Of a stretch of 64,000 nt of DNA, positions 6,321 to 64,000 are shown in pieces. The notes under the pieces are model-generated. The model searched no databases and was not told the origin of the DNA. It worked only from the letters and a program-made list of their open reading frames with translations. The stretch spans positions 1,674,001 to 1,738,000 of the forward strand of contig OX597827.1 in the NCBI GenBank assembly GCA_951406725.2, given 5' to 3'. The translations under genes and the position numbers were made by a program. Position 1 is the stretch's first letter, and every line of letters begins with the position of its first letter. This DNA comes from Octopus vulgaris (lineage: Eukaryota).

Positions 6321-7619
6321 TATAATTTATACACACACACACACAAACAAATACTTTCCAAAACCACCTGGGAAATTCTACATTGTTTGATTGTTTGATA
6401 TTAGTATGTGTACACACATACATACATATACACACACAAATATATGTGTGTGTATATATCTATGGATGTATATATATATATGTATATAGGTATATATATA
6501 TGTGTGTGTGTGAATATATATATATTTATATATATATATATATATACACTCACCATCAGCCGTCAAGCATCAAGTTTGGAGGAAGGGTAAGTTGATTACG
6601 TCGACCCCCCAGTGCTCAACTGGTACTTATTTTACCCCCCCCCCCCCACACACACACACCAAATGGATGAAAGGCAAAGTCGATATTGGCAGAATAAATA
6701 ATGATAATAATAATAATAGTAATGATAATAATAATGATGATTTCTTTTAAACAAGAAGATGGGAGTAGACAGACAGATATTGCAAGAGATTGTTTGGTGA
6801 TCTTTAAGGTGACATTTAGAAAATAGTTTTCAGACAGCAGGACAAGTTACAAGAAAATACCAAAACAAAGCAAAAAAAAATGGAAAAGTAAAAAGAAAAC
6901 AACAGAATATAAAACAAAAAGTCTCCACTCAAGAGAAACAACAACAGCAACAACAACAATGATAATAATAACAACAACAACAACAACAATAATAATAATA
7001 ATAATAATAATAATAAGATAAAGTCATCATATGTTTTAATTTGTTTTATATTTTTTTGTTAATGTTTATTGTTGAGGATGTTGAAGTGTGTGGGGAGAGA
7101 TTGGCAGAATCTATAGCGTCAGACAATCAGATGGACGTAGCTGGAGGGCCATGGATTAGCAGAAGTGGTAGAGAGTTGGGCAATATAATCCAAGAGGGGA
7201 GAGCCAGAACTGGTAAGCGTGTTGGAAAAAATTCTTTGAGTGGGTAGATTAGCAAAGCTTTAGTCTAAGCTGTTCTATTGCGGGTGTGGTAGTGGTTCAA
7301 ACCAGCTGGGATCAAATTTGTCTCACATCCTTGGAATCCTTGATAGGCTGATAAAATAAAAAAACTGAAGGGGTCAGTGTAATCTGATAAACCTATTTCC
7401 CTAAATTTTATTGCCTTACATCTCCGTTAGAAACCAGTGAAGGCATGGTGCCATGTGGTTAGGGTATCCAGCTTAGGATCATAAGGTCATGAGTTTGATT
7501 CTTGGCAGTGTGTTCTATCCTTGAGCAAGACACTTTATTTCACATTGCTCTAGTCCACTCAGCAGGCAAAAGTGGGTTGTACCACTATTATAAGGGACCA
7601 CCTTTGTCACATTCCATGC

Positions 7620-8075
7620 CTTGCAGAAACCAGGCTCCAATCTGATCTGGCAAAGTTTCTACAGCTGGATGCCTTTCCTAACACCAACCACTCTGAGTGT
7701 GTAGTGGGTGCTTTTACATGCTACCAGCATGAGGGCCAGTCAGGTGGTTCTGACAATGACCATACTCAAAAAGTGTTTTTTATGTGCTACCTGGATGGGA
7801 GCCAGTCCGGTGGCACTGGCAACGACTACAATCAAATGTTGTTTTTCCCATGCCACTGGCATATGTGCTGGTCAGGCAACGCTGGCAATGATCATGCTCA
7901 AATGGTGCCTTTTACATGCTACCAGCACAGGAGCCAATCCATGGCCCTGGCAATGATCATGCTCGGATATGTGCTTTTAACACTCCACTGGCATGAGTGC
8001 CAATCAAGCAGTACTGTCATCAGCCACCTCACCGATTTTGATTTTGATTTCACTTGCCTCAACAGGTCTTCACAA
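7620..8075 (-). mobile_element. RTE LINE 3'UTR copy with about five 66-bp tandem units
   Basis: Same 'ccaatctgatctggc...ggatgcctttcc' core as 150-450, then repeated 'ggtgctttttacatg...gccagtc...actggc' units, then the RTE ORF-end sequence 'tttcacttgcctcaacaggtctt'. Confidence 0.7.
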
Positions 8076-8155
8076 GCAAAGTTCATTGTCCAATGAATGA
8101 AGGGTACTCATAAGTGGGCTGGGTAAACCCACTGGAATAAGCCAATATATATATA

Positions 8156-8208
<53 letters not shown>

Positions 8209-8214
8209 TATATA

Positions 8215-8450
8215 TAGTAATCCCTCACCATATTGTGGTTCGTCTATTGTGATTCACCTATCGCAGTGTTTTATGTAAGCTCATGTTGATTCCTCTGTGG
8301 TGTTGTTTTGCATTTATAATGAACTAAATATATACAAATTATAAAAATAAGTAAAAAAAATATACAGTACCGTACTGTTTCTACTGTGCGGATTTTCACC
8401 TACCGCAGGGGCTTTGGAACATAACACCCACATTAGTTGAGCAGTTACTG
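8215..8450. mobile_element. Tigger/pogo-like MITE
   Basis: Imperfect terminal inverted repeats (TIRs) tagtaatccctcaccatattgtgg / cccacattagttgagcagttactg, flanked by TA. Confidence 0.45.
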
Positions 8451-8474
8451 TATGTATATCTATCTATCTATCTA

Positions 8475-8523
<49 letters not shown>

Positions 8524-9574
8524 ATTTACTACAGAAACGTAGTAACATAGACTGTTCTACTTCTTAGAGTGTGCTTCTCTGGATTTATGCTTTTTGAAAA
8601 TGATATACATATATGTATATGTATATATATATATATACACATGTATATCTGTATATGTGTGTGTATGTGTGTGTGTGTATTTGTATTTGTGTTTGTATCC
8701 CCACCATAACTTGACAAATAGTGTTGGTTTGTTTACATCCTCATAACTTAGTTCCTCAGCAAGATAGATTGATGAAATAAGGGGTTACTGCATTAAACTA
8801 AACCCCTCAAACCATTGCTCCAGAATGACCATAGTCCAATGACAGAAATAAGTAAAAAAAAAATATGAAATAATTGAAGTGGATAGAGGTTATTTAGTTG
8901 TGTAGTTTTAGCTACCATCACTATGGCCATGCTGGAGCACCGCTGTCATGCTGAAGTGGTAGAAGTGGAAAATTGTCAGCTTAAATTCCTTGTAGTACTT
9001 AGCGATGTTCTGAGTTCAAACTTTGCTTGGCTCAACTTTTCCATTCAAACCCTCCAAGTACCAGTAATATCCAAAGGTTTGTATTCAATTAATTGCTTAA
9101 CTGAATTTCTTACTCCACATCATTCTGCTAAATTCATATCCTTGCTCTCAAATTTAGAAATAAAAGGGGTGGTGGTAGTGGTGATGGTGGTGGTGTTTGT
9201 AGTGGTAATGGTGGTAGTGGGGATAGTGGTGATTATGGTAATGGTGGTGGTGGTTGTGTTAGTGGTGATGATTGTAGTGGTAGTATGGAGGTGATGATGA
9301 TGTGTTGCTGTTGCTGGTGGTAGTGTCATGACTTGGTAGTAGTGGTGGTGGTGGTGGTAGTGTGACGCAGGTAATGGTGGCAATTCATGGTGAATCTTGC
9401 TTTTGTTGTTATTGTAGTGGCAGCAGTGGTGGTGGTGGTGGTGGTGGTTGTGGTGGCGTTGGTGGTGGTGGTGTTGGTGGTGGTGGTTGTGGTGATAGTG
9501 ATGATCCAGCTCTTTGTTCTTGGGTGTGATAAGCAATCTGAAATCAGGGCTCGCCAGGGTGGGCAGAGGAAAGC

Positions 9575-9606
<32 letters not shown>

Positions 9607-10099
9607 TATAACATCAACAACAGCAACCACATCAGCAACAAGAACAACAGCAGCAACAACAATCGTGATTAGAATCTCAGCTACAACCCTGACAACATGA
9701 TCTACCACAACAACAACAACAACAACATCACCAACAGAAATGATAACGATGCAGCTTCAACAGGATTTCTCGACATATTAGAAACAGTAGTCAAATCACC
9801 CTCATATCACATCTTTCTCATCAAAGAAAGGCTTTCCAGCCTTGACCATCTCATTTAATATATCTGCAGCACAGTGTTCCCCAGTAAAACAATATGTTCG
9901 TTGTTTTTAGAAACAGTGCAATGTGAGGGATGTTTGACTCTTATTTCTTCCAGACCATGTGACCAGCGAGAACATCACTGACTTGCTCATCATATTTTTG
10001 TTGTTGCTGCTGTTAATGCTATTGTTGCTGTTGTTGTTGTTGCTATTGTTGTTGTTTCTGTTATTATTATTCATGTTGTTGTTGTTTTTAATATTCATC

Positions 10100-10130
10100 A
10101 TTATTATAATTATTATTATTATTATTATTA

Positions 10131-10179
<49 letters not shown>

Positions 10180-10186
10180 TAATAAT

Positions 10187-10273
<87 letters not shown>

Positions 10274-10286
10274 AATAATAATAATT

Positions 10287-10383
<97 letters not shown>

Positions 10384-10408
10384 TAATAATAATAATAATA
10401 ATAATAAT

Positions 10409-10507
<99 letters not shown>

Positions 10508-10529
10508 TAAAATAATAATAATAATAATG

Positions 10530-10576
<47 letters not shown>

Positions 10577-10648
10577 AATAATAATTAAAATAATAATAAT
10601 AATAATTATAATAATAATAATAATGATAATGATAATAATAATAATAAT

Positions 10649-10693
<45 letters not shown>

Positions 10694-10712
10694 AATAATA
10701 ATTAAAATAATT

Positions 10713-10753
<41 letters not shown>

Positions 10754-10784
10754 AATAATAATTAAAATAATAATAATAATAATG

Positions 10785-10831
<47 letters not shown>

Positions 10832-10895
10832 AATAATAATAATTATAATAATAATAATAATAATGATAATAATAATAATAATAATAATAATAATT

Positions 10896-10936
<41 letters not shown>

Positions 10937-10967
10937 AATAATAATTAAAATAATAATAATAATAATG

Positions 10968-11004
<37 letters not shown>

Positions 11005-11119
11005 TAATAATAATAATAATAATAATTATAATAATAATAATAATGATAATAATAATAATAATAATAATTATAATAATAATAATAATAATAATAATGATAA
11101 TAATAATAATAATAATTAA

Positions 11120-11151
<32 letters not shown>

Positions 11152-11170
11152 TAATAATAATAATAATAAT
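10100..11170. repeat. About 1-kb (AAT)n microsatellite with GAT/TAT/'taattaaaat' variants
   Basis: Seen directly. It accounts for the poly-I, poly-N and poly-Y ORFs. Confidence 0.95.
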
Positions 11171-11173
11171 ATT

Positions 11174-11358
11174 GTTTTATATTTAAGAGATGAGGAATTA
11201 TGCACATTACTTACATTATTTACATTTGACGGATATTAGTCCTCATCTTGTTTATTGTTAACACAACGTTTTGACTGATATATCTTCCAGCCTTCATCAG
11301 GTGTCTTGCGGAAATTTCAAACCTGGGTTCTCATTCCATTATTATTATTTGTTGTTGC

Positions 11359-11391
<33 letters not shown>

Positions 11392-11722
11392 CATTATTAT
11401 TATTATTATTACTATTATTATTATCATTATTCTTATCTTTTTATTTTTTATTATTCAGGTCACTGCCTGGAATCGAAATCAGAATCATGGGGTTAGTAGC
11501 CCGCACTCTTAACCACCATAAGTCCGTAGTGTAGTGGTTAAGAGCACGGGCTACTAACCCTAAGATTCCGAGCTCAATTCCAGTTAGTGACCTGAATAAT
11601 AATAATAATAATAACATCGAAAAATACCTTAGGAATGGGAACCCAGGTTTGAAATTTCCCCAAGACACTTGGTGAAGGATGGAGGGTATATCTGTCGAAA
11701 CATGTTAACAATAAACAAGATG
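11174..11722. mobile_element. Palindromic tRNA-head/(TAA)n/hammerhead element, copy 1
   Basis: Arms are inverted about ~11520. Each arm has a tRNA-like head (GTAGTGGTTAAGAGC...CTACTAA...B box), (TAA)n and an HHR (11260-11305 on minus; 11664-11706 on plus, decayed). Homologous to 63399-63982. Confidence 0.85.
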
Positions 11723-11838
11723 TTAACAACGATCAAACACACACACACATGCACAAACATGTATATTTACATTTCTACACACATGCTAGCATGGACAACG
11801 GACGTTAAATAATGATGATGATTAAATATATATATATA

Positions 11839-20600: not shown

Positions 20601-20734
20601 ATATATATATTCAAATCAAATGAACAAATAGTCAATTGAAATAAACAAACAAATCTAATAAAAGAACAGAAAAGAATGAATGTGGGGACATGTAGGAGAA
20701 AGGTATTAGCTTGATGCTCAGTGGAAGGAGAGAG

Positions 20735-20767
20735 TTTGATGTTTCGAGCATAGCTCTTCATCAGAAA
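20735..20767 (-). ncRNA. Minimal hammerhead ribozyme (PLE 3' region)
   Basis: Minus strand ttt-CTGATGA-a-gagc tat gctc-GAAAC-ATC-aaa, where ATC is probably CpG decay of GTC. Confidence 0.8.
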
Positions 20768-20942
20768 GAAGAAAGAGAAAAGGACACAGATGGAGAAGAA
20801 ATCACTAACAGCATACATGTAGTAAGATATATATATATATATATAATGGGAAGGTTTACGAAAATAAACAAAAGACGAAGGCAGGTGGAGTACAAACAAG
20901 CAAATGTATTAGTATAGCGCTCGGGAATAGAAATAGAACAAG

Positions 20943-20980
20943 TCTTTTGCGTTTCGAGCCTATGCTCTTCGTTAGAAAGA
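20943..20980 (-). ncRNA. Minimal hammerhead ribozyme, second copy (decayed)
   Basis: Minus strand tcttt-CTAACGA-a-gagc atag gctc-GAAAC-GCA-aaaga. Stem I is 5 bp and there are two core mutations. Confidence 0.7.
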
Positions 20981-22997
20981 TATACAGAAAAGAAACAAGG
21001 AGAGAAAAAAAATGTGTGTAGGAGCTAACGGTTCATCATGGAGTTCTGACTTCAGGCAGAAGTCAGAGGTCAGAGGTCAGAGGTCAGAGGTTAGACGCTA
21101 GAGGGATAGTAGGGGAGATAACAGGGTCAAGTGACTTCGCCCTAACATGAAGGTGCGTGCGTGTATAAGAAAGTATGTATGTGCATGTGAAAGAGGGCTG
21201 GTGGTCTGAATGTGTGTATGTATGTATGTGTGGGTGTGGGGATATGGGGATGGGAGTGTGGATGGTGTGTTGTGATATGATATGTGTATGTATGTGTAGG
21301 TGTAAAGATGTGGGGATGGGTGTGTGGGCCGTGTGCTGTGGGTGGTGTGTTGTGATGTGATGTGTAATGTGGGCGGTGTGCTGTGGGCGGTGTGCTGTGG
21401 GTGGTGTGTTGTGATGTGATGTGTGGGTTCGGCTGGGGGTTGGGGTAGAGTGGTGGTTGTGGGGAGAGTGAGGGGGAGAGAAGAGAGGAGGGGAGGAGGG
21501 GAGGGAGAGAGGAGATGAGGGGAAGAGAGGAGGAGGAGGAGGGAGAGGAGGGAAGGGGGAGAGAAGGGGAGTGAGGGAGCAGAGAGAAAGAGAGAAGGGG
21601 AAGAGGGAAGAAAAAAGAAGAAAGAAGAAGAGGGAAGAAGGGAAAGAAGGGAAAGAGACTAGGGGTGAAAAGATGAAGGACTCAAGAGAAGTAGGAGTCG
21701 GGGAGGGGAGGTTAGATGAAAAGGGGGGAGAGTTGAGCCCAAATGGCATAAAAGAGCGAAGAGAGAAGATTAATCCCTGTTCATGGTGCAGGCGGGAATC
21801 CGGATGGCCTCTGTGCAAGGACAATCCGAACAGAGACAGGTGTTGCGAGGAGTGACCGGTGGAGCGGAAATGGCATGAGACTGGTGTGTCATTGGCGAGG
21901 TGGATGTCTCGGAGGTGCTCCGCAAACCGGTCAGCCAAGTGGCGTCCCTTTTGTCCGATGTACAGAGAATGGCAGAGAGAGCAGGAGATGCAATAGATGA
22001 TATTGCTGGAGGTGCAGGTGAAGGAGTCGATGATGCGATAGGGTCGATGATGGGTGCCGTGAGGAGGGTGGTGTTGGAGAGGTAAGGGCAACTGTGGCAA
22101 CGTGGGAGGGAGCAGGGGAACGAGCCAGGTTGGGAGGTAGGGTCAGGGAAGAAGCTGTGGACCAAGAGGTCTCGTAGGTTACGGGCTCATTTGAAGGAGG
22201 GGAGGGGTCAGTTAGGGAAGAGGTGTGAAGTGGACGGGTTTGACTGGAGATACCAGAAAGCTCGAATAATGGTGCGTTGGAGAGGTAGGGTAGTGGGGTG
22301 GTAAGTGAGGGGAAAAGAGAGGCGGGAGACTGCAGGGTGGGTTCAGGGGGAGAGAGCAGATGCACGGTCTATGGAACGTGCTCTGGCAAGGGCGGTGTGG
22401 ATAGTGGTGAGGGGGTATCCACGTAGGACAAAGTGGCGAGCCATGAGTTGAGACTGAGTCTCAAAGTCATGGTCGTCACTACAGAGCCTACGTAAATGGA
22501 GGAATTGGGAATAGGGGATGGAAAGCTTGGTGTGTTTGGGGTAGGAAGAAGAGAAGTTTAGGTATGAGTGTGAGTCTGTGTGTTTGTAGTGAATGGAGGT
22601 GGTAAGAGTGGAGTGATGAATGCTGACCAAAATGTCGAGGAAGGAGACATAGGTGTTGGAGATAGTGGAGGTGAAGTGGAGGGCAGGATGGAAGGATTGA
22701 ACGAAAGAGAGGAAGGAATCTAGATGTTCACGGGAGAGTGAGGTGGCACCAATAATGTCATCAATGTAACGACTGTATAGTTCGGGAGTGGGACTAGTGA
22801 AACTAGAGAATATTTGGGCCTCAACATAGCCAACGAACAGGTTTGCATAGTTGGGGCCCATTCGCGTTCCCATGGCCACTCCCGAGAACTGTTGGTAGAA
22901 CTCGACCGCAAACGAGAAGCAGTTAAGAGAAAGGACATATATATATATATATGTACATTTATATGTGTGTGTGTGTGTGTGTGTATGAATATATGTA

Positions 22998-23031
<34 letters not shown>

Positions 23032-23830
23032 CATATGTTTATATGCATATATAAATACATATACATACGTACACACACACACTCACACACACATTTAAGT
23101 ATGTATATATATGTATATGTAAATTTATATGTGTACCTGGGAAAGGTAAAATAAAATCAAAATACAGTAACTGAAAACACACACACACCCGCTCACACAC
23201 ATTCACACAGACATACATATAAACTGATATACGCAAACGCATGCACAAACACGTGCACAATGCACACACACAACTATATACCTTCATTTGTGTTAAAATG
23301 TTTGTTCATAAAAGAGTGTGTATTTGTGTGTTTGTGTTTATGTGTGTGTCTGTGGAGTGTGTGTGTGTGGAGTGTGTGTGTGTGTGTGTGGTGTGTGACA
23401 ATGATGGAAACATGTCACAGGCTCCATGCAAGTCAGATGGAGGCAACTGCAGTTAGGATGATGGAGGGTGGTAGTGGTAGGTGGTGGGGTGGGATGTGGT
23501 GGTGGAACTTGTTGGGCGAAAGGGTGACAGTGGGTAGAGAGTGTACTAAATACAAATTAAAGAGTGTATGAGATATAGAGAGAGAATGAGTAAGAGAGAG
23601 GAAGGGGGAGAAAAAGCATAAAGAAAGGGTATATATATGTATGTGAATGTGTGTTTGTACCCCTTGTCCCACAGGGGTAGGGAAATATCATCTCTATTTC
23701 TAAGAGGGCTATCTCTGTCACTCTTTCATAGTCTAACCTCTTGCCTAGCACATGGTCACTTCTCTCAATTCCACTCGCTCTCTCAGTTGAGAGGGCTTCA
23801 TCTTACAAGCTACTTGGTGACCTCCACTGG

Positions 23831-27299: not shown

Positions 27300-28523
27300 C
27301 AGGATGCATAAGGTATTTGAGGACATACATTTTTTGGGTCATTGCTGCATGTTTTGCTAACTCTTTATAATCCTAGTTTCAGAAAATAATAATGGCAGAC
27401 GCTCAGCTTACTCAAGAAATGAAGAAGCATGCTGCTATTGTGGTTATAAAGGTTGCGTATAGCGATTTAGAAATATCTCGATTTTTAAAAGTTGTCAGAT
27501 TTTACATCTACAGAGATTGTAAGGAATTTAGAGACTGAAGATGGAGATGTATCACCAGTATCAAAGCATAAAAAGCATCCTAAATGCTCTGAAATCATTG
27601 GAACATCTGAATTTATCCAGCAAGTTCAACAGACTATTGATTACAATCCCAGAAAATCCATGAGGTCAATTGCAAAAGATCTCCATGTATCAGAAGGAAC
27701 AGTCAGAAATGTTGTCCATGAAGACATCAGATATAAATGATGAGGAAAGGTCAATTTGTCGGAAAGAGCAAAAGAAAATCATTACATCAGATCTAGAAGT
27801 CTCTTAAACAAACTGAAAAATACAGCAGAAGATTTGGTTTTTCTCAAACAGAAAAACTTTGACCAAGATCGAAAAGTTAACAGCATTGATAGATGGTTAT
27901 GTGCAGACCCTTCTGAAGTTCCATGTGTTATGCATACAAAATTTCCTGCAACTGTCATGGTTTTAGGGATTGTTAGCAATGAAGAACATATGATGCTTCC
28001 TTACTTCTTTCCAGATGGCCTTAGAGTTAACTCTGCTGCCTATATTGAGATCCTGGAAATACTTAAGCCCTGGATAGACAGTGTATGTAATATAAGACCA
28101 TATGTGTTTCAGTAAGACTCTGCACTATCACATATAGTTCTAGTAACAGAGGGATATTTGGCTGAAAATTTTCATGATCCCATAATTCCTAACATTTGAC
28201 TTTCTAATTCCTCAGATCTCCATCCATTGGACTATTACATGTGGAGTATTGTTAAGAGAGGTCAATGAACATGCCCATAACACCAAAGATTCTTTGAAAG
28301 CTGCCACAGTCAGTAATGTCCAAAATGAACCCAGACGATGTAGATGATTTAGCTCTGATATGGAAGCAGTTGTTGAAGCTGAAGATGGCGTTATTGAATA
28401 ACATTATAGAAAAGAAGGTTTATCTTTATCCTCATATTTTTTGATAAATAAAGTTATTATCTGTTATTATATATATGTTTTTTTTTTATAAACACAAATC
28501 TGTCCTCAAATATTTTAAGCAAC

Positions 28524-41284: not shown

Positions 41285-41915
41285 TATTTAAATGATAAAC
41301 TTCTGGAAAGTTTTACAGATTTTTACAGTTCCAGTGATGGATTGGATCTGTAGTCTTCAAATTAGCTTTCTCCTTTCTGGTTTTGAGAAGCCTAATTTCT
41401 TAAGATTGGTATTTAGGCATTATGTTGCATATCCCAGGGCCCCGATAATTACAGGTATAAACCTGAACTTGTAATCTGCATAGAGTAACTGCAGTTTTCT
41501 CAATAGTTCAGCATAGGTGTTCTATTTTTCACTGATCTTCAGCTTTATGTTAACATCCGTTGGGCAGCCAATTTCGACAACTGTGCAAAGTTTTTCTTCT
41601 CTATCCCAAATCATTATATCAGGTCTGTTGTGCTTACATTTTATTGAGGCCTTCACTGGTACATTCCACCAGTATTCCTTTTTATTATGATTGGCTATGG
41701 CTTCTAGCATATTGTGGGTTCTTATTTTCTAGTCCTCTGTATTATCCTTCCGACAGATTTCATTATAGAGTGTCCTAGCTACAATGTCATGTCTCATCGG
41801 TAGATAATACCGTGATGACATTTTCGGACAACTGCTTATGACGTGGGTGATATCTTCAGTATGAACTCCACAAAGTCTGCATTGGTTGTCACATTTTATG
41901 GCTTTTCCTGCATCC
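41285..41915 (-). mobile_element. R4/Dong-like non-LTR retrotransposon 3' fragment (restriction-like endonuclease)
   Basis: CRLCGVHTEDITHVISSCP (CCHC), RHDIVA, HNRPDIMIWD..VVEIGCP..EK*NTY..IPVIIGALG. Confidence 0.85.
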
Positions 41916-57315: not shown

Positions 57316-59330
57316 TTAGGAACAGTAGTCTAAGTAGCTCAAGACATGTTTCCTCCAAAGGACCATCATGGTTTCCTGTTCACTTGTTCTGAAAGCTTGG
57401 AGGATCCATTCAGCTATCCGTCTACATTTTATTGCCAAATTAGTAATATGCACCTGGAAAGATGCATCATTAGTCATGTCAGTGCCTAGGTCATGCACTG
57501 GTTTTGATTCAGCAATTTCAGTTCCACTTGGGCCAGTGTATCCTGTCTGCATTTCCTTCAGTTTTGGGTGCTGGCAGCGCAGGGCTTGGAATTTTCCAGC
57601 ATTAAACTGTATGTTATTGTCTTCATACCACCTGTATATTGCATCCAATTCTCATTGCAGTTGCATGATATTTCCAGAGTTCTGAATCTTTTGACAGATT
57701 TTTATATCATCTGCATAGCTAGCAAGGGTGGCTCTCTGAACAGCTGAAGGCTTGTCTGAGAGGACTGCTATGAATAGCAGTGGCCCTAAGACAGTGCTCT
57801 ACGGAACACCACTCACTATTTGTGTTCATTTGAGGCGGCGCCATTGGTCACCACAACCTGACTTCTATGATTTAGAAAGTTGTAGCCACTCTCTTTTACT
57901 CTTTTACTCTTTTACTTGTTTCAGTCATTTGACTGTGGCCATGCTGGAACACCACCTTTAGTTGAGCAAATCGACCCCAGGACTTATTCTTTGTGAGCCT
58001 AGTACTTATTCTATCGGTCCCTTTGGCTGAACTGCTAAGTTACAGAGACGTAAACACACCAGCATCGGTTGTCAAGCGATGTTGGGGGGACAAACACAGA
58101 CACACAAACATATGTACACACATACACACACACACATATATATACATATATACAACGTGCTTTTTTCAGTTTCCATCAACCAAATCCACTCACAAGGCTT
58201 TGGTTGGCCCGAGGCTATAGTAGAAGACACTTGACCAAGGCGCCACACAGTGGGACTGAGCCTGGACCAAGACATTAGTAAGCAAGCTATTTACCGCACA
58301 GCCACTCCTCCAAGTTTTCTGACAATGTGAAGATCGTGGAGTTTGTGACATATGATATCATGGTCGATCTTATCAAAGGCTTTTGCAAAGTCAAGATATA
58401 TCACATCTGCATTTGTACTATTGAGCAGCTGCTTTAACATCTAATCCTAGTGTTGTAAGAGCTGTGTCTGCCTCATTCTGGATGGCAGTCAGTTAGTCAT
58501 TCTCTTCAAGGAATGTGATTAGTTTCCTGCAGACTATTCGTTCCATGACTTTGCTGATGTGCGAAAGGCCCATGATCTTTAGCATCTGCTCTGCTTCCTC
58601 ATTTGTGGATAGAGCATGGTCTTCTCCCTCTTTCATTTTGCTTGGGAGCTTAACACTTGCAAAGGAGTTCTGGAAAAGAAGCTGCAGTGGTTTTGCAAGA
58701 GCTCATTTGCATGATTTGAGAAGGGTTGCTGGGAATCCCTCAGGGCCAGCAGCTGAGTTTGCATCCACCTCATCTATGGCTAATATTACATCTTTGATAT
58801 TGATGATGATGATGATGATCATCATCATCATCGTTTAACGTCTGTTTTCTGTGCTAGCAGGGTTGGATGGTTCAACCGGGGTCTGGGAAGCCAGGGGCTG
58901 CACCAGGCTCCAGTCTGATCTGGCAGTGTTTCTACAGCTGAATGCCCTTCCTAACACCAACCAGTCCATGAGTGTAGTGGGTGCTTTTTACGTGCCACAG
59001 GCACAGGTGCCAGGGGAGGCTGCTCCTTTGGTTACAAGTGGAGTGGCAAAGAAACCTGCTGGTCTGTTCACTTGCCTGTATCCCGAAGGAATTGTGAACA
59101 CATTTTGGAACTGTTCGTTCAGTATTCCACTTATCCTTATTGGGTTTTCTGTGATGGTGTCATCCTTTTGGATGAAGGGCCCTATCTTTTAGTGTACTGA
59201 GTCCATTTCTTTGAAAAGGTTAAAGAAAGCTTTAGCTTTAATATTTTCTATAACCCAAGCCTCCTAATCTGCTCTCTCTCTTTTTTCCATGGGATTATTG
59301 CAGATATATCTTAATCTTTTCACTACTTTT
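57316..59330 (-). pseudogene. CR1-group LINE ORF2 (RT) remnant with nested insertions
   Basis: AAGPEG, SKVMERIV, DVIYLDFAKAFDKIDH, SGVP*STVLGPLLF, SYADDIK, FNAGKF, LDYCS. Split by a family A SINE (57891-58310) and an RTE 3'UTR (58818-59020). Confidence 0.9.
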
Positions 59331-61852: not shown

Positions 61853-62964
61853 TTGGGTTGGCAACTAAGTTCTGCTTTTTTCTTAAATTTTGGAATTTAT
61901 TGCAGTTTTAAATTTTGGAATCTATTTTTTTTTTGAGAATTCTATTTTTGAATCATTTTGGAATCTATTTTGTTTTTTTTCTAGTTAATTTTAGTTAAAT
62001 TTATGTTCAGATCATTAAAATGGAATGTCAAGTTAAGAAAAACAAGCATTTTCGACACCTGTTTGCTTTTAATCAAAGTTCTAAGGCTGCAAAAGCTGCT
62101 CACAACATTTGTGCTGTGTATGGAGCGGGTGCCATAGCTGAAAGAACTGCTCATGATTGGTATGCCAAGTTCAATAATGGAAATTTTGACCTCAAAGACA
62201 CACCTCATCCTGGCGGTTTATTTGAGTTTGATGAAGAGCGATTAAACCAACTTTTGCATGAAAATTCTCATCAAATGACCAGAGAATTGGCAGAGAAAAT
62301 GGAATGCTCCCACATTGCCATAGAGAAGCATCTTCACTCGACGGGAATGGTTCAGAAGTATGGAGCATGTGTTCCGTATGCTTTAAGTAACAACAACAAA
62401 AATCAATGAGCCACAATCTCCGCTGGTTTGCTTGCTTGTCACCACTCAACTCATGGACACAAGCAACAATTTCTTTACTGAATCGTTACTGGTGACAAAA
62501 AATGGTGCCTGTACATCAATATGAAGCAGCGTAAGGAATGGCTTAGCCCCGGTAAACAAGCGACACCATGCGTGAAACAAGATCTTCATCCACGTAAAAC
62601 AATGCACGACAACGCCCGCCTTCATATCACCAATATGACCAAGGAAGCCATTCAAAGACATGGCTGGGAAGTGCTGCCACACCCACTGTACTCTCCTGAT
62701 TTGGCACCAATGGATTTCCAGCTCTTTCGATCTCTTTCAAATGCTATGCATGGAGTTTCGTTCAGTACTGATGCAGAATTGAGAGCTTGGTTGGATCAAT
62801 TTTTCGAGTCGAAATCGAGGAACTGAAAATTTTGTTGAACATTGGGAAGAAGTTGTAAACAACAAGGGTGAATACATTATTGATTAATTAGTTGCTATTT
62901 TTTTATTAAACCTTTTAAAAAATTAAAATTTAAAAAAATGGCAGGAACTTAGTTGTCAACCCAA
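61853..62964 (+). mobile_element. mariner (DD34D) transposon, internally deleted
   Basis: TIRs ttgggttggcaactaagttc / gaacttagttgtcaacccaa with TA flanks. Motifs CVPYAL (WVPHEL), VTGDKKW and HDNARLH..HPLYSPDLAPMD with 34 residues between the Asp. Stops are present. Confidence 0.93.
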
Positions 62965-63398
62965 TACATATGTACATTCATGTATAAATATATGTGTGTA
63001 TATATACATACCTAAATATATATGTATGAATGTATTTTTGTATGTATTTATTCATTATGTGCAACAGAAGTAGCATTAGTTTAAAATTGCAATCTGTGTA
63101 ACATATTTAATGCATATGCATCATAGAAAGTCAAATTAACTGCAGTATTCAGCCCAAAATAACATTTCTTATTGATGTATACTGTTAACTCAAAAATATA
63201 TTATTAGTGGCCAAAAATCCTCCAAAAGTGATGACATTTTAAATGCTAATTTCTGCCTCTTTGGATTTTCATCAGTAGCAAGCACCTGTGGGCAACTGCA
63301 TGCTAAAGCAAAATCCTTTATCATTGTTTTCTTGTTTCAGTGATAGCAGATTTTGACTGCAATCCACTTGGCAATCTGAACATCATTGATAAAGTGGG

Positions 63399-63582
63399 AT
63401 TCAGTTCTATATTTAAGAGATGAAGAATTATGTACATTATTTATATTATTTACATTTGACGGATATTTGTCCTCATCTTGTTTGTTGTTAGCACAACATT
63501 TCGGCTGATATCCTCTCCAGCCGTCATCAGGTGTCTTGGAGAAATTTTGAACCTGGGTTCTGATTCCTAAGGTATTTTTCAA

Positions 63583-63617
<35 letters not shown>

Positions 63618-63754
63618 TCACTGCTTGGAATCAAACTCGGAATTTTAGGGTTAGTAGCCTGTGCTCTTAACCACTTTGCCGTATGCCACAGGCATATGGC
63701 GTAGTGGTTAAGAGCTACTAACCTGAAGATTCCAAGTTCGATTCCAGGTAGTGA

Positions 63755-63829
<75 letters not shown>

Positions 63830-63982
63830 CAACATTGAAAAATACCTTAGGAATGAGAACCCAGGTTCGAAATTTCCCCAAGACACCTGATGAAGGCTGG
63901 AAGATATATCAGTCAAAACTTTGTGTTAATAACAAACAAGATGAGGACAAATATCAGTCAAATGTAAATAATGTAAATAATG
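63399..63982. mobile_element. Palindromic tRNA-head/(TAA)n/hammerhead element, copy 2, with 9-bp TSD
   Basis: Centre gccgtatgcc-aca-ggcatatggc (axis 63688-63690), A box TGGCGTAGTGG, B box GTTCGATTCC. HHRs at 63490-63535 (-) and 63882-63927 (+). TAAAGTGGG at 63390-63398 and 63983-63991. Confidence 0.9.
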
Positions 63983-64000
63983 TAAAGTGGGGCTGTATGG

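Follow-up and report, generated by a model that had tools for sequence, protein, structure and literature searches.

The window analysed here is a 64,000-nucleotide stretch of the Octopus vulgaris genome (contig OX597827.1; C14:1674001-1738000), and near its right end, at positions 63399-63982 in window numbering, lies an inverted two-armed element whose arms are 90% complementary across 181 nt. An earlier note on this DNA, made from the letters alone, had described each arm as running from a tRNA-like head through (TAA)n and a spacer to a hammerhead and a tail; this order was confirmed in both arms, except that only the left one is tailed, and the arms are inverted and joined head to head at 63688-63690. 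The left arm, on the minus strand, consists of a tRNA-like head (63613-63687) with a degenerate A box and the B box GTTTGATTCC, an (AAT)n tract separating head and body (63587-63612), and a body (63399-63586) that corresponds to the part of the pseudo-long terminal repeat (pLTR) of a parental Penelope-like element (PLE) in which the open reading frame (ORF) starts, with the start codon mutated. Within this body, a minimal type I hammerhead motif at 63490-63535 (minus strand) comprises stem I GACAC/GTGCT, CUGAUGA, stem II GGCUG/CAGCC and GAAA; it has the traits of a minimal hammerhead ribozyme, has no Rfam match, and its C15.2 is mutated to T. The left arm is indeed the longer one, its surplus being 34 nt (63399-63432, minus strand) rather than the roughly 30 claimed, and this surplus is the PLE 'tail', found here in the left arm only and continuing into the ORF in the parent. 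The right arm, on the plus strand, consists of a tRNA-Arg-like head (63690-63757; A box 63697-63707, B box 63736-63745) with a 6-nt deletion in the anticodon arm, an (AAT)n tract (63758-63830) and a body without tail (63831-63982), whose hammerhead motif (63882-63927) has a broken core, GAAA being replaced by AAAA. Contrary to the statement that the element encodes no protein, the right arm is open from the ATG at 63853 (MRTQVRNFPKTPDEGW...), and this frame is the N-terminus of the parental ORF (codons 1-44), while the left-arm counterpart of that ATG is mutated. A direct repeat, TAAAGTGGG, occupies 63390-63398 and 63983-63991 on the plus strand and is taken for a target-site duplication (TSD), in line with the TSD statistics of the family. 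The claimed length of 9 bp stands as an upper bound, and the true length is 7-9 bp, because the first 2 nt of TAAAGTGGG also match the end of the element.

The element is not a chance pattern, because its 29-nt tail has 3,864 exact matches across the 2.80 Gb of genome searched and a control sequence has none. Exact tail-like stretches occurred in 30 of 114 cases in loci that had not been selected by the tail, from which we roughly estimate ~15,000 tailed ends genome-wide (3,864 x 114/30). The copies diverge by ~5% from their consensus. Head-to-head pairs were present at 71 of the 106 loci examined, and at 26 of 40 in the set selected by the tail alone; the survey covered flanks of ~1 kb, so that long pairs escape it, and included complex loci. 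Exactly one arm was tailed in 64 of the 71 pairs, and a direct repeat of at least 7 nt flanked 38 of 70 pairs, compared with 1.8% of shuffled pairings. TSD lengths in the family were mostly 7-14, the truncated arm was the tailed or the tail-less one, and the axes were variable. Inverted arms plus a TSD are also what a miniature inverted-repeat transposable element (MITE) or fold-back DNA transposon with long terminal inverted repeats would present. However, the ends are asymmetric with a single tail, the TSDs range over 7-14 and the inner ends are variably truncated, leaving this reading a negligible probability; it was ruled out by the structure of the parent, in which the element is a retroelement pLTR.

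Each arm is the whole pLTR of an autonomous PLE with a reverse transcriptase (RT) and a GIY-YIG domain in the same genome: in that PLE the head comes after the stop of the ORF, whose first codons make up the spacer, hammerhead and tail of the arm. Two loci read past the tail into an open frame, and extension gave the N-terminal region, the C-terminal region and the RT. The parent runs in the order tRNA-like head, (AAT)n, ORF start with minimal hammerhead and tail, RT, GIY-YIG and stop; after the stop come a 37-nt untranslated region (UTR), the head, (AAT)n and the ORF start once more, giving a total of ~2.9 kb (near-full-length copies are L262, L268 and L275, for example). The pLTR of this family thus takes in the ORF start. 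Among 30 loci selected by the C-terminal (GIY-YIG) part of the ORF, a same-strand head match followed the stop and 37-nt UTR in 24, and a head or body match followed in 29. The RT matched RVT_1 (E 1.4e-9), and TERT and group II-like RTs were the best PDB matches of the parental protein. Its identity to three database proteins that contain an RT (P0001-P0003) is 54-64%, and the near-full-length copies match P0001 collinearly. The GIY-YIG fragment had no Pfam match; we take it to be GIY-YIG from its motif and the domain order, and presumably the element belongs to the Penelope/Poseidon clade, given its N-terminal motifs. No relatives were found in metagenome or viral contigs, and an ESM Atlas search with the ORF N-terminus gave no match at >=0.9. 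Judged from these features, the family appears to have all the traits of an endonuclease-bearing (EN+) PLE: an RT, a pLTR with ORF start, a minimal hammerhead, one tail, an inverted copy truncated at its 5' end and short TSDs of variable length. The earlier note had proposed mobilisation by a PLE RT/GIY-YIG enzyme with the same hammerhead and tail, and the autonomous element located here bears that out. Exact junctions between tail and ORF numbered 27 against 3,864 exact tails, so that <1% of tails run into the ORF. A different tail-to-ORF scan tolerated 5 errors and also picked up several tail-only loci, among them L024, L032, L039 and L065, which were not counted as ORF-bearing.

The same note had regarded the arms as a short interspersed nuclear element (SINE) in its own right, relying on RNA polymerase III (Pol III) for its transcription, processed by its ribozyme, borrowing PLE enzymes and spreading as a palindromic twin. 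Such a family would agree with the ~80% of heads that lack upstream parent sequence, with the recurrence of fixed-axis twins, and with the short copies lying slightly nearer the consensus than ORF-linked ones (0.052 versus 0.066, the consensus having been built mostly from short copies). However, head, (AAT)n and body all occur in the autonomous element, and a comparison of 92 short with 66 ORF-linked arms revealed no variant specific to the short copies (0 of 54 variant tests significant after correction, smallest p 0.014). The axes are also variable, and the two arms may differ in subfamily variants. Of the features that define SINE2 elements, the tRNA-derived head appears to be present, while a non-coding sequence distinct from that of the partner except at the 3' end is absent. 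A separate SINE family is therefore not upheld, and we consider an independent SINE very unlikely.

The hammerhead consensus given in the note is identical to the family consensus of 23 loci, but neither focal copy equals it, owing to the substitutions described above; in alignment A1, one of the 12 rows (L085) is a wrong interval. The consensus matches the minimal hammerhead traits that PMC4209133 gives for PLEs in its available text. Among 270 distinct arms, 130 retain an intact core and 63 are changed at N7; this is the free position and the commonest site of non-CpG change in the core, a mild hint that the core may be maintained in source elements. Rfam returned no hammerhead on the element or on six parental-junction loci, and a single-arm hammerhead folded no better than shuffles (z -0.5 to -1.0). 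Ribozyme processing was not borne out by the insertions: the arms retain both sides of the cut site, of 398 arms, only 2 have their 5' end directly past the predicted cut (body 93) and 2 at body 94, and the 5'-end rate there is not above that of the rest of the body in the same arms, which also speaks against an independent ribozyme-processed SINE. The six ends that fall at body 95 mostly reflect deletions whose two sides meet at a GTTAA homology with the head. Since the predicted cut shows no excess of arm 5' ends, the RNA copied into the insertions was uncut. The accessible part of PMC4209133 reports no in vitro cleavage by single minimal hammerheads.

The head is tRNA-derived, as the note had said: A and B boxes are present, both intact and correctly spaced in the consensus head, and the head aligns with the genomic tRNA-Arg(TCG) at 49 matches over 73 nt (z 7.6), the best among 27 distinct tRNA genes. 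A donor SINE was not found, as all 30 head loci belong to the family and other SINE-like heads match at 38-51 positions. Such other tRNA-derived SINE-like heads with A/B boxes, bearing only generic tRNA likeness, were seen at L059 (1410-1500) and ~25 further places. On a type 2 promoter, Pol III starts near the tRNA +1, and the 5' ends of copies cluster in the same place. There are 1,790 exact head matches; among the first 30 of these, 24 heads start at -7 to +5 of the tRNA +1 and 6 extend into the UTR or ORF. Among parental-junction loci, 6 of 30 end within ~32 nt upstream, which gives a background of ~8% per 12 nt; against it, 23 of 29 starts (one near-duplicate removed) has a P of 2e-20, and of 1e-11 at a background of 20%. 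L105 and L334, the two ORF-bearing loci in which the sense head is complete, have their 5' end at the same -7 to +5 place. The reading that we favour, with reasonable though not strong confidence, is a pLTR twin of an autonomous PLE with a captured Pol III promoter, formed by two-ended priming; within it, transcription of the captured head by Pol III into a short pLTR RNA seems somewhat more probable than its absence, on the evidence of the boxes and the 5' ends.

Several observations weigh against this reading. ARAGORN found no tRNA in the window, nor in the head consensus at a relaxed threshold (-ps80), and Rfam at its E-value threshold found none on the element or on the six parental-junction loci; the whole-window Rfam scan was dominated by microsatellite matches, the best 150 of 496 being listed. 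Because Rfam and ARAGORN are silent, the tRNA and hammerhead labels rest on motif and alignment. Other SINE-like heads in the loci score nearly as high (11.5 versus 16.5). An intact ORF-head-ORF tandem was not found among the ORF-bearing loci inspected, and the complex loci in the pair analyses may represent more than one insertion. A TATA-like TATAAG lies at -34, 27 nt above the start at about -7, and equally suits a start by RNA polymerase II (Pol II), and the hairpin at the head border could by itself halt the RT. Three RNA sequencing (RNA-seq) runs aligned to L180 at 82% likeness (6,700-9,600 reads per run) showed about equal depth in both directions and no pile-up of molecule starts or ends; the equal depth fits passive read-through or an unstranded library. 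Depth stepped 2.5- to 3-fold at the hairpin, and the same step was present in DNA-type contigs. The inverted head appeared at the hairpin point in 345-429 reads per run, which confirms that the twin junctions are common and is silent on the polymerase.

These points lead to the alternative that the family is an ordinary Pol II-transcribed PLE and the SINE head a passenger that landed in its 3' UTR, the 5' ends resulting from a TATA-driven start or from hairpin stalling or self-priming. The TATAAG at -34 is accompanied by TCACT at -19, and ~10 of 24 short heads begin at +1 to +5, within the 3' strand of the hairpin, as stalling would have it. In the portions available, PMC3846280 describes pLTR palindromes with self-priming and no Pol III, and PMC2377424 an internal TATA-less promoter of Penelope like those of long interspersed nuclear elements (LINEs). 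However, the consensus has unbroken A and B boxes at the correct spacing, the starts lie where Pol III would start, and the other hairpins of the body have no comparable 5'-end cluster. We therefore judge the Pol II alternative unlikely, though it is the strongest competitor of the captured Pol III promoter.

Pol III, whose usual products are short non-coding RNAs only, terminates at runs of at least four T (T4), and this underlies a further comparison between the two. T4 is scarce in the family: ORF fragments contain 0.37 per kb over 93.7 kb (summed, redundant), no T4 site is common to more than 4 of ~40 copies, none is conserved in the sense orientation of the 2.7-kb unit, and the head and body consensus has zero. 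Counts were 1, 0 and 0 in the three longest of the near-full-length copies and 0-1 in five shorter ones, where base composition would predict ~6 per near-full-length copy (P0 0.002-0.003) and a dinucleotide model 3.4-4.1 (P0 ~0.02). In twelve other retroelement-like ORFs, chosen by eye among 30, the density is 1.62 per kb, and a control Neptune-like PLE of the same genome retains 2.08 per kb with several conserved sites, one of them common to most of 30 copies, which counts against the Pol II alternative. TTT makes up 0.25 of Phe codons in the family versus 0.48 in the controls. Against this, TCT and CCT codons are likewise under-used; the Pol II alternative puts the gap down to chance or codon bias; synonymous resampling expects 1.22 T4 per kb, ~3 per ORF, and zero then has P ~0.05; and the test comprises one ancestral sequence and one control PLE family. 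The scarcity of T4 is suggestive, not decisive, as a sign of Pol III-transcribed coding RNA. That Pol III might also transcribe the RT/endonuclease mRNA from the captured tRNA promoter is accordingly a tentative proposal, possible but more doubtful than its role at the short RNA.

How the twins form can be approached from their junctions. The parent has a hairpin, TGCCC-AC-GGGCA, at the UTR/head border (-9.6 kcal/mol, z -2.4 in L180), and the focal axis (63684-63694, TGCC-ACA-GGCA) is the remnant of this hairpin, TGCCC-AC-(G/A)GGCA minus one C. The axis reported by the note thus exists, but it equals the loop of a pre-existing parental hairpin, and most insertions have other axes. A fixed axis holds for a subset, 154 exact-junction loci, and is variable in most insertions, so that there is no fixed twin unit; likewise, the proposed fold-back at or near the RNA 5' end stands for a subset only. 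A 4-nt gap was found in 46 of the 50 listed among the 154 exact twin loci, with 0-8 permitted, and the unfolded parental junction occurred at 170 loci. At several fixed-axis loci the fold-back extends for only ~20 nt before the sequence passes into the body through a common GTTAA, implying that the junction is formed anew at each insertion. In some pairs, such as L053, L056 and L057, the tailed arm is the shorter one, and fold-back of a single cDNA is therefore insufficient. The arms share non-CpG variants above chance (0.0064 versus 0.002 per site; maximum of 1,000 permutations 0.0038). The variants 130G and 61A agree between arms above chance, yet among the pairs that carry them 12 of 26 and 11 of 21 disagree. 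Because subfamily variants differ between the arms, two templates were probably used in some pairs, a signal blurred by later inter-arm conversion and composite loci.

Taking these junctions together with a putative captured tRNA-Arg-like type 2 Pol III promoter in the pLTR, we propose the following route. Transcription would begin within the hairpin, a few nt ahead of the tRNA +1; the hammerhead is uncut in the copied RNA, as the insertions show. The PLE protein would cut both target strands 7-14 nt apart, and the RT would start at two sites ~34 nt apart, one per target end, yielding one tailed and one tail-less cDNA; this two-site priming is inferred from the biochemistry of the PLE PAc, described below, and from the one-tail pattern in 64 of 71 pairs. 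The two cDNAs would then be joined head to head, the junctions being observed and the route proposed. Where cDNAs reach the RNA 5' end, the GGGCA/TGCCC palindrome could pair and give a fixed-axis twin; where they stop short of it, short homologies could give variable axes. The scarcity of T4 may mean, more weakly, that the same promoter also transcribes the coding RNA.

Further features of the family were recorded in passing. A second two-armed copy lies at ~11170-11735 of the window, with a tailed left arm, a scrambled axis and a decayed right arm; a ~1.1-kb (TAA)n-type microsatellite (10088-11186) adjoins its tail. L038 has two tailed arms, with near-identical inverted flanks past both tails, a larger inverted duplication centred on the element. 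L242 and L244, ~0.86 Mb apart on C1, are near-identical at the junction and upstream and probably represent a single insertion duplicated along with its surroundings. A 9-bp unit ahead of the tail (consensus body 120-150) is present in zero to several extra copies that keep the ORF frame and yield an Asn/Val-rich stretch, and the hairpin arms GATGAGGA/TCCTCATC flank the tail-less end in the family consensus. On C29, loci L091-L094, L097 and L098 (L092 and L098 being one locus) hold a head-less derivative of the family, with ~276-bp head-to-tail units of hammerhead body and ORF start and the same junction in five loci; this tandem resembles a non-LTR retrozyme arising from a PLE. The focal element itself was rejected as a non-LTR retrozyme, which needs a head-to-tail tandem of at least two hammerhead units, as its arms are head to head.

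The window contains a second PLE on the minus strand at 20700-23038, which we take to be Neptune-like and which served as the T4 control (2,821 candidates in a first look at the genome). It contains fragments of RT and GIY-YIG, its 3' region is long and rich in pyrimidines, and hammerhead-like motifs of its own lie near 20764 and 20970. Its 21084-23038 part was excluded as the partner of the focal element by its different hammerhead and 3' region. ORF fragments of two more PLE-like families occur at L117 (2352-3086) and L127 (682-1190), one of them presumably Naiad-like. Decayed transposase fragments at 61999-62826 and 27744-28115 of the window are taken to be Tc1/mariner-like, and LINE fragments at ~41800-41900 and 57316-57651 of the window, and at L106, L109, L183 and L021, to be R4/Dong-like and CR1-like. 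R4/Dong-like ORFs frequently adjoin the (TAA)n tracts of the family.

In its palindrome, tail, TSD and hammerhead the element behaves as PLEs are known to do; what we did not find in titles, abstract openings and cited passages of the open-access literature, Repbase and Dfam aside, is a tRNA-derived, Pol III-type promoter in the pLTR of an autonomous PLE. The family may well be present in repeat libraries under another label; an octopus repeat called 'Twin' has reportedly been described. In the one supplement of PMC13282606, neither 'hammerhead' nor 'twin' occurs. If the promoter assignment is right, SINE-like repeats could emerge directly from the end of a PLE. If, as is less probable, Pol III makes both the RT/endonuclease mRNA and an abundant short pLTR RNA, the element would be its own LINE and its own SINE, with the Pol II promoter replaced and oligo-T purged from the 2.7-kb unit. 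Its uncapped message would then have to be translated in some unusual way, and the genome would preserve in the twins a record of priming from two ends, sometimes on two templates. Because the family is large, the formation of PLE inverted structures becomes testable on thousands of junctions. For annotation, the copies resemble tRNA-SINEs or MITEs, although they are the ends of PLEs, and long double-stranded RNA could arise from each twin.

The architecture, which the earlier note did not know to have been described, is in fact already published in its parts: an inverted pLTR, a one-sided tail, a 9-10-bp TSD and a palindromic junction. In their accessible sections, PMC8557442 describes PLEs that have a 30-40-bp tail on one side and are accompanied by a 5'-truncated copy in inverted orientation, and PMC3846280 TSDs of 8-10 bp and palindromes at head-to-head junctions and at the pLTR 5' end. 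EN+ Penelope elements resemble the focal family in their one-sided tail, 8-10-bp TSD, palindrome and solo pLTRs (parts of PMC3846280 and PMC8557442). In Adineta vaga Pen2a_Av, Pen2 and Pen3a, as here, the pLTR overlaps the ORF start and the 5' pLTR is inverted, while the available text on the A. vaga pLTRs gives TATA/Inr motifs and describes no tRNA head, unlike the focal family (PMC3846280). The pLTR-only twins here also far exceed the ORF-bearing copies, unlike what that text presents for the A. vaga Penelopes. Metazoan PLE minimal hammerheads share the extra base after A9, the G10.1-C11.1 pair and the palindromic 15.2-16.2 with the focal motif, and pairs on opposite strands, 100-700 bp apart, had already been ascribed to truncated PLEs (from the sections available of PMC4209133, in which 'tRNA' and 'octopus' each occur zero times).

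The closest biochemical precedent is PAc, a Poseidon element of Anolis carolinensis, which, as far as the accessible portion of PMC11167929 describes, has a hammerhead at the ORF start and a tail bounded by two RT starts, as here. Both strands are cut and extended in PAc, the substrate in vitro is uncut RNA, and neither PAc nor the focal family shows RNA ends at the cut site. The PAc ORF begins at hammerhead stem II, whereas here an in-frame ATG lies 34 nt ahead of the core, and no Pol III promoter is reported for PAc in that portion. Among short repeats, schistosome Sm-alpha/Sj-alpha likewise combine a Pol III promoter with a hammerhead; according to the available text of PMC6765202 they are tandem and released by cleavage, with no named coding parent, whereas the focal copies are dispersed, inverted and not cut, and belong to a coding element. 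Non-LTR retrozymes (bioRxiv 10.64898/2026.07.22.740005) and MRC1-type non-autonomous Chlamys (PMC8557442) are, as here, short PLE-derived units with pLTR sequence, but they form head-to-tail tandems, and neither a tRNA head nor head-to-head pairs are described in the accessible sections. The elements known to use Pol III promoters are non-autonomous ones such as SINEs and TRIMp3, to which a tRNA-driven coding PLE would, if true, be an exception. The TRIMp3 elements Cassandra, Helenus and Ajax carry, like the focal family, a small-RNA-derived Pol III promoter in the terminal repeat, its origin probably a SINE insertion, and PMC10886601 argues, in its available part, that Pol II is obligatory for their autonomous partners. 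TRIMp3 are non-autonomous LTR elements, whereas here the tRNA-like head sits in an autonomous PLE.
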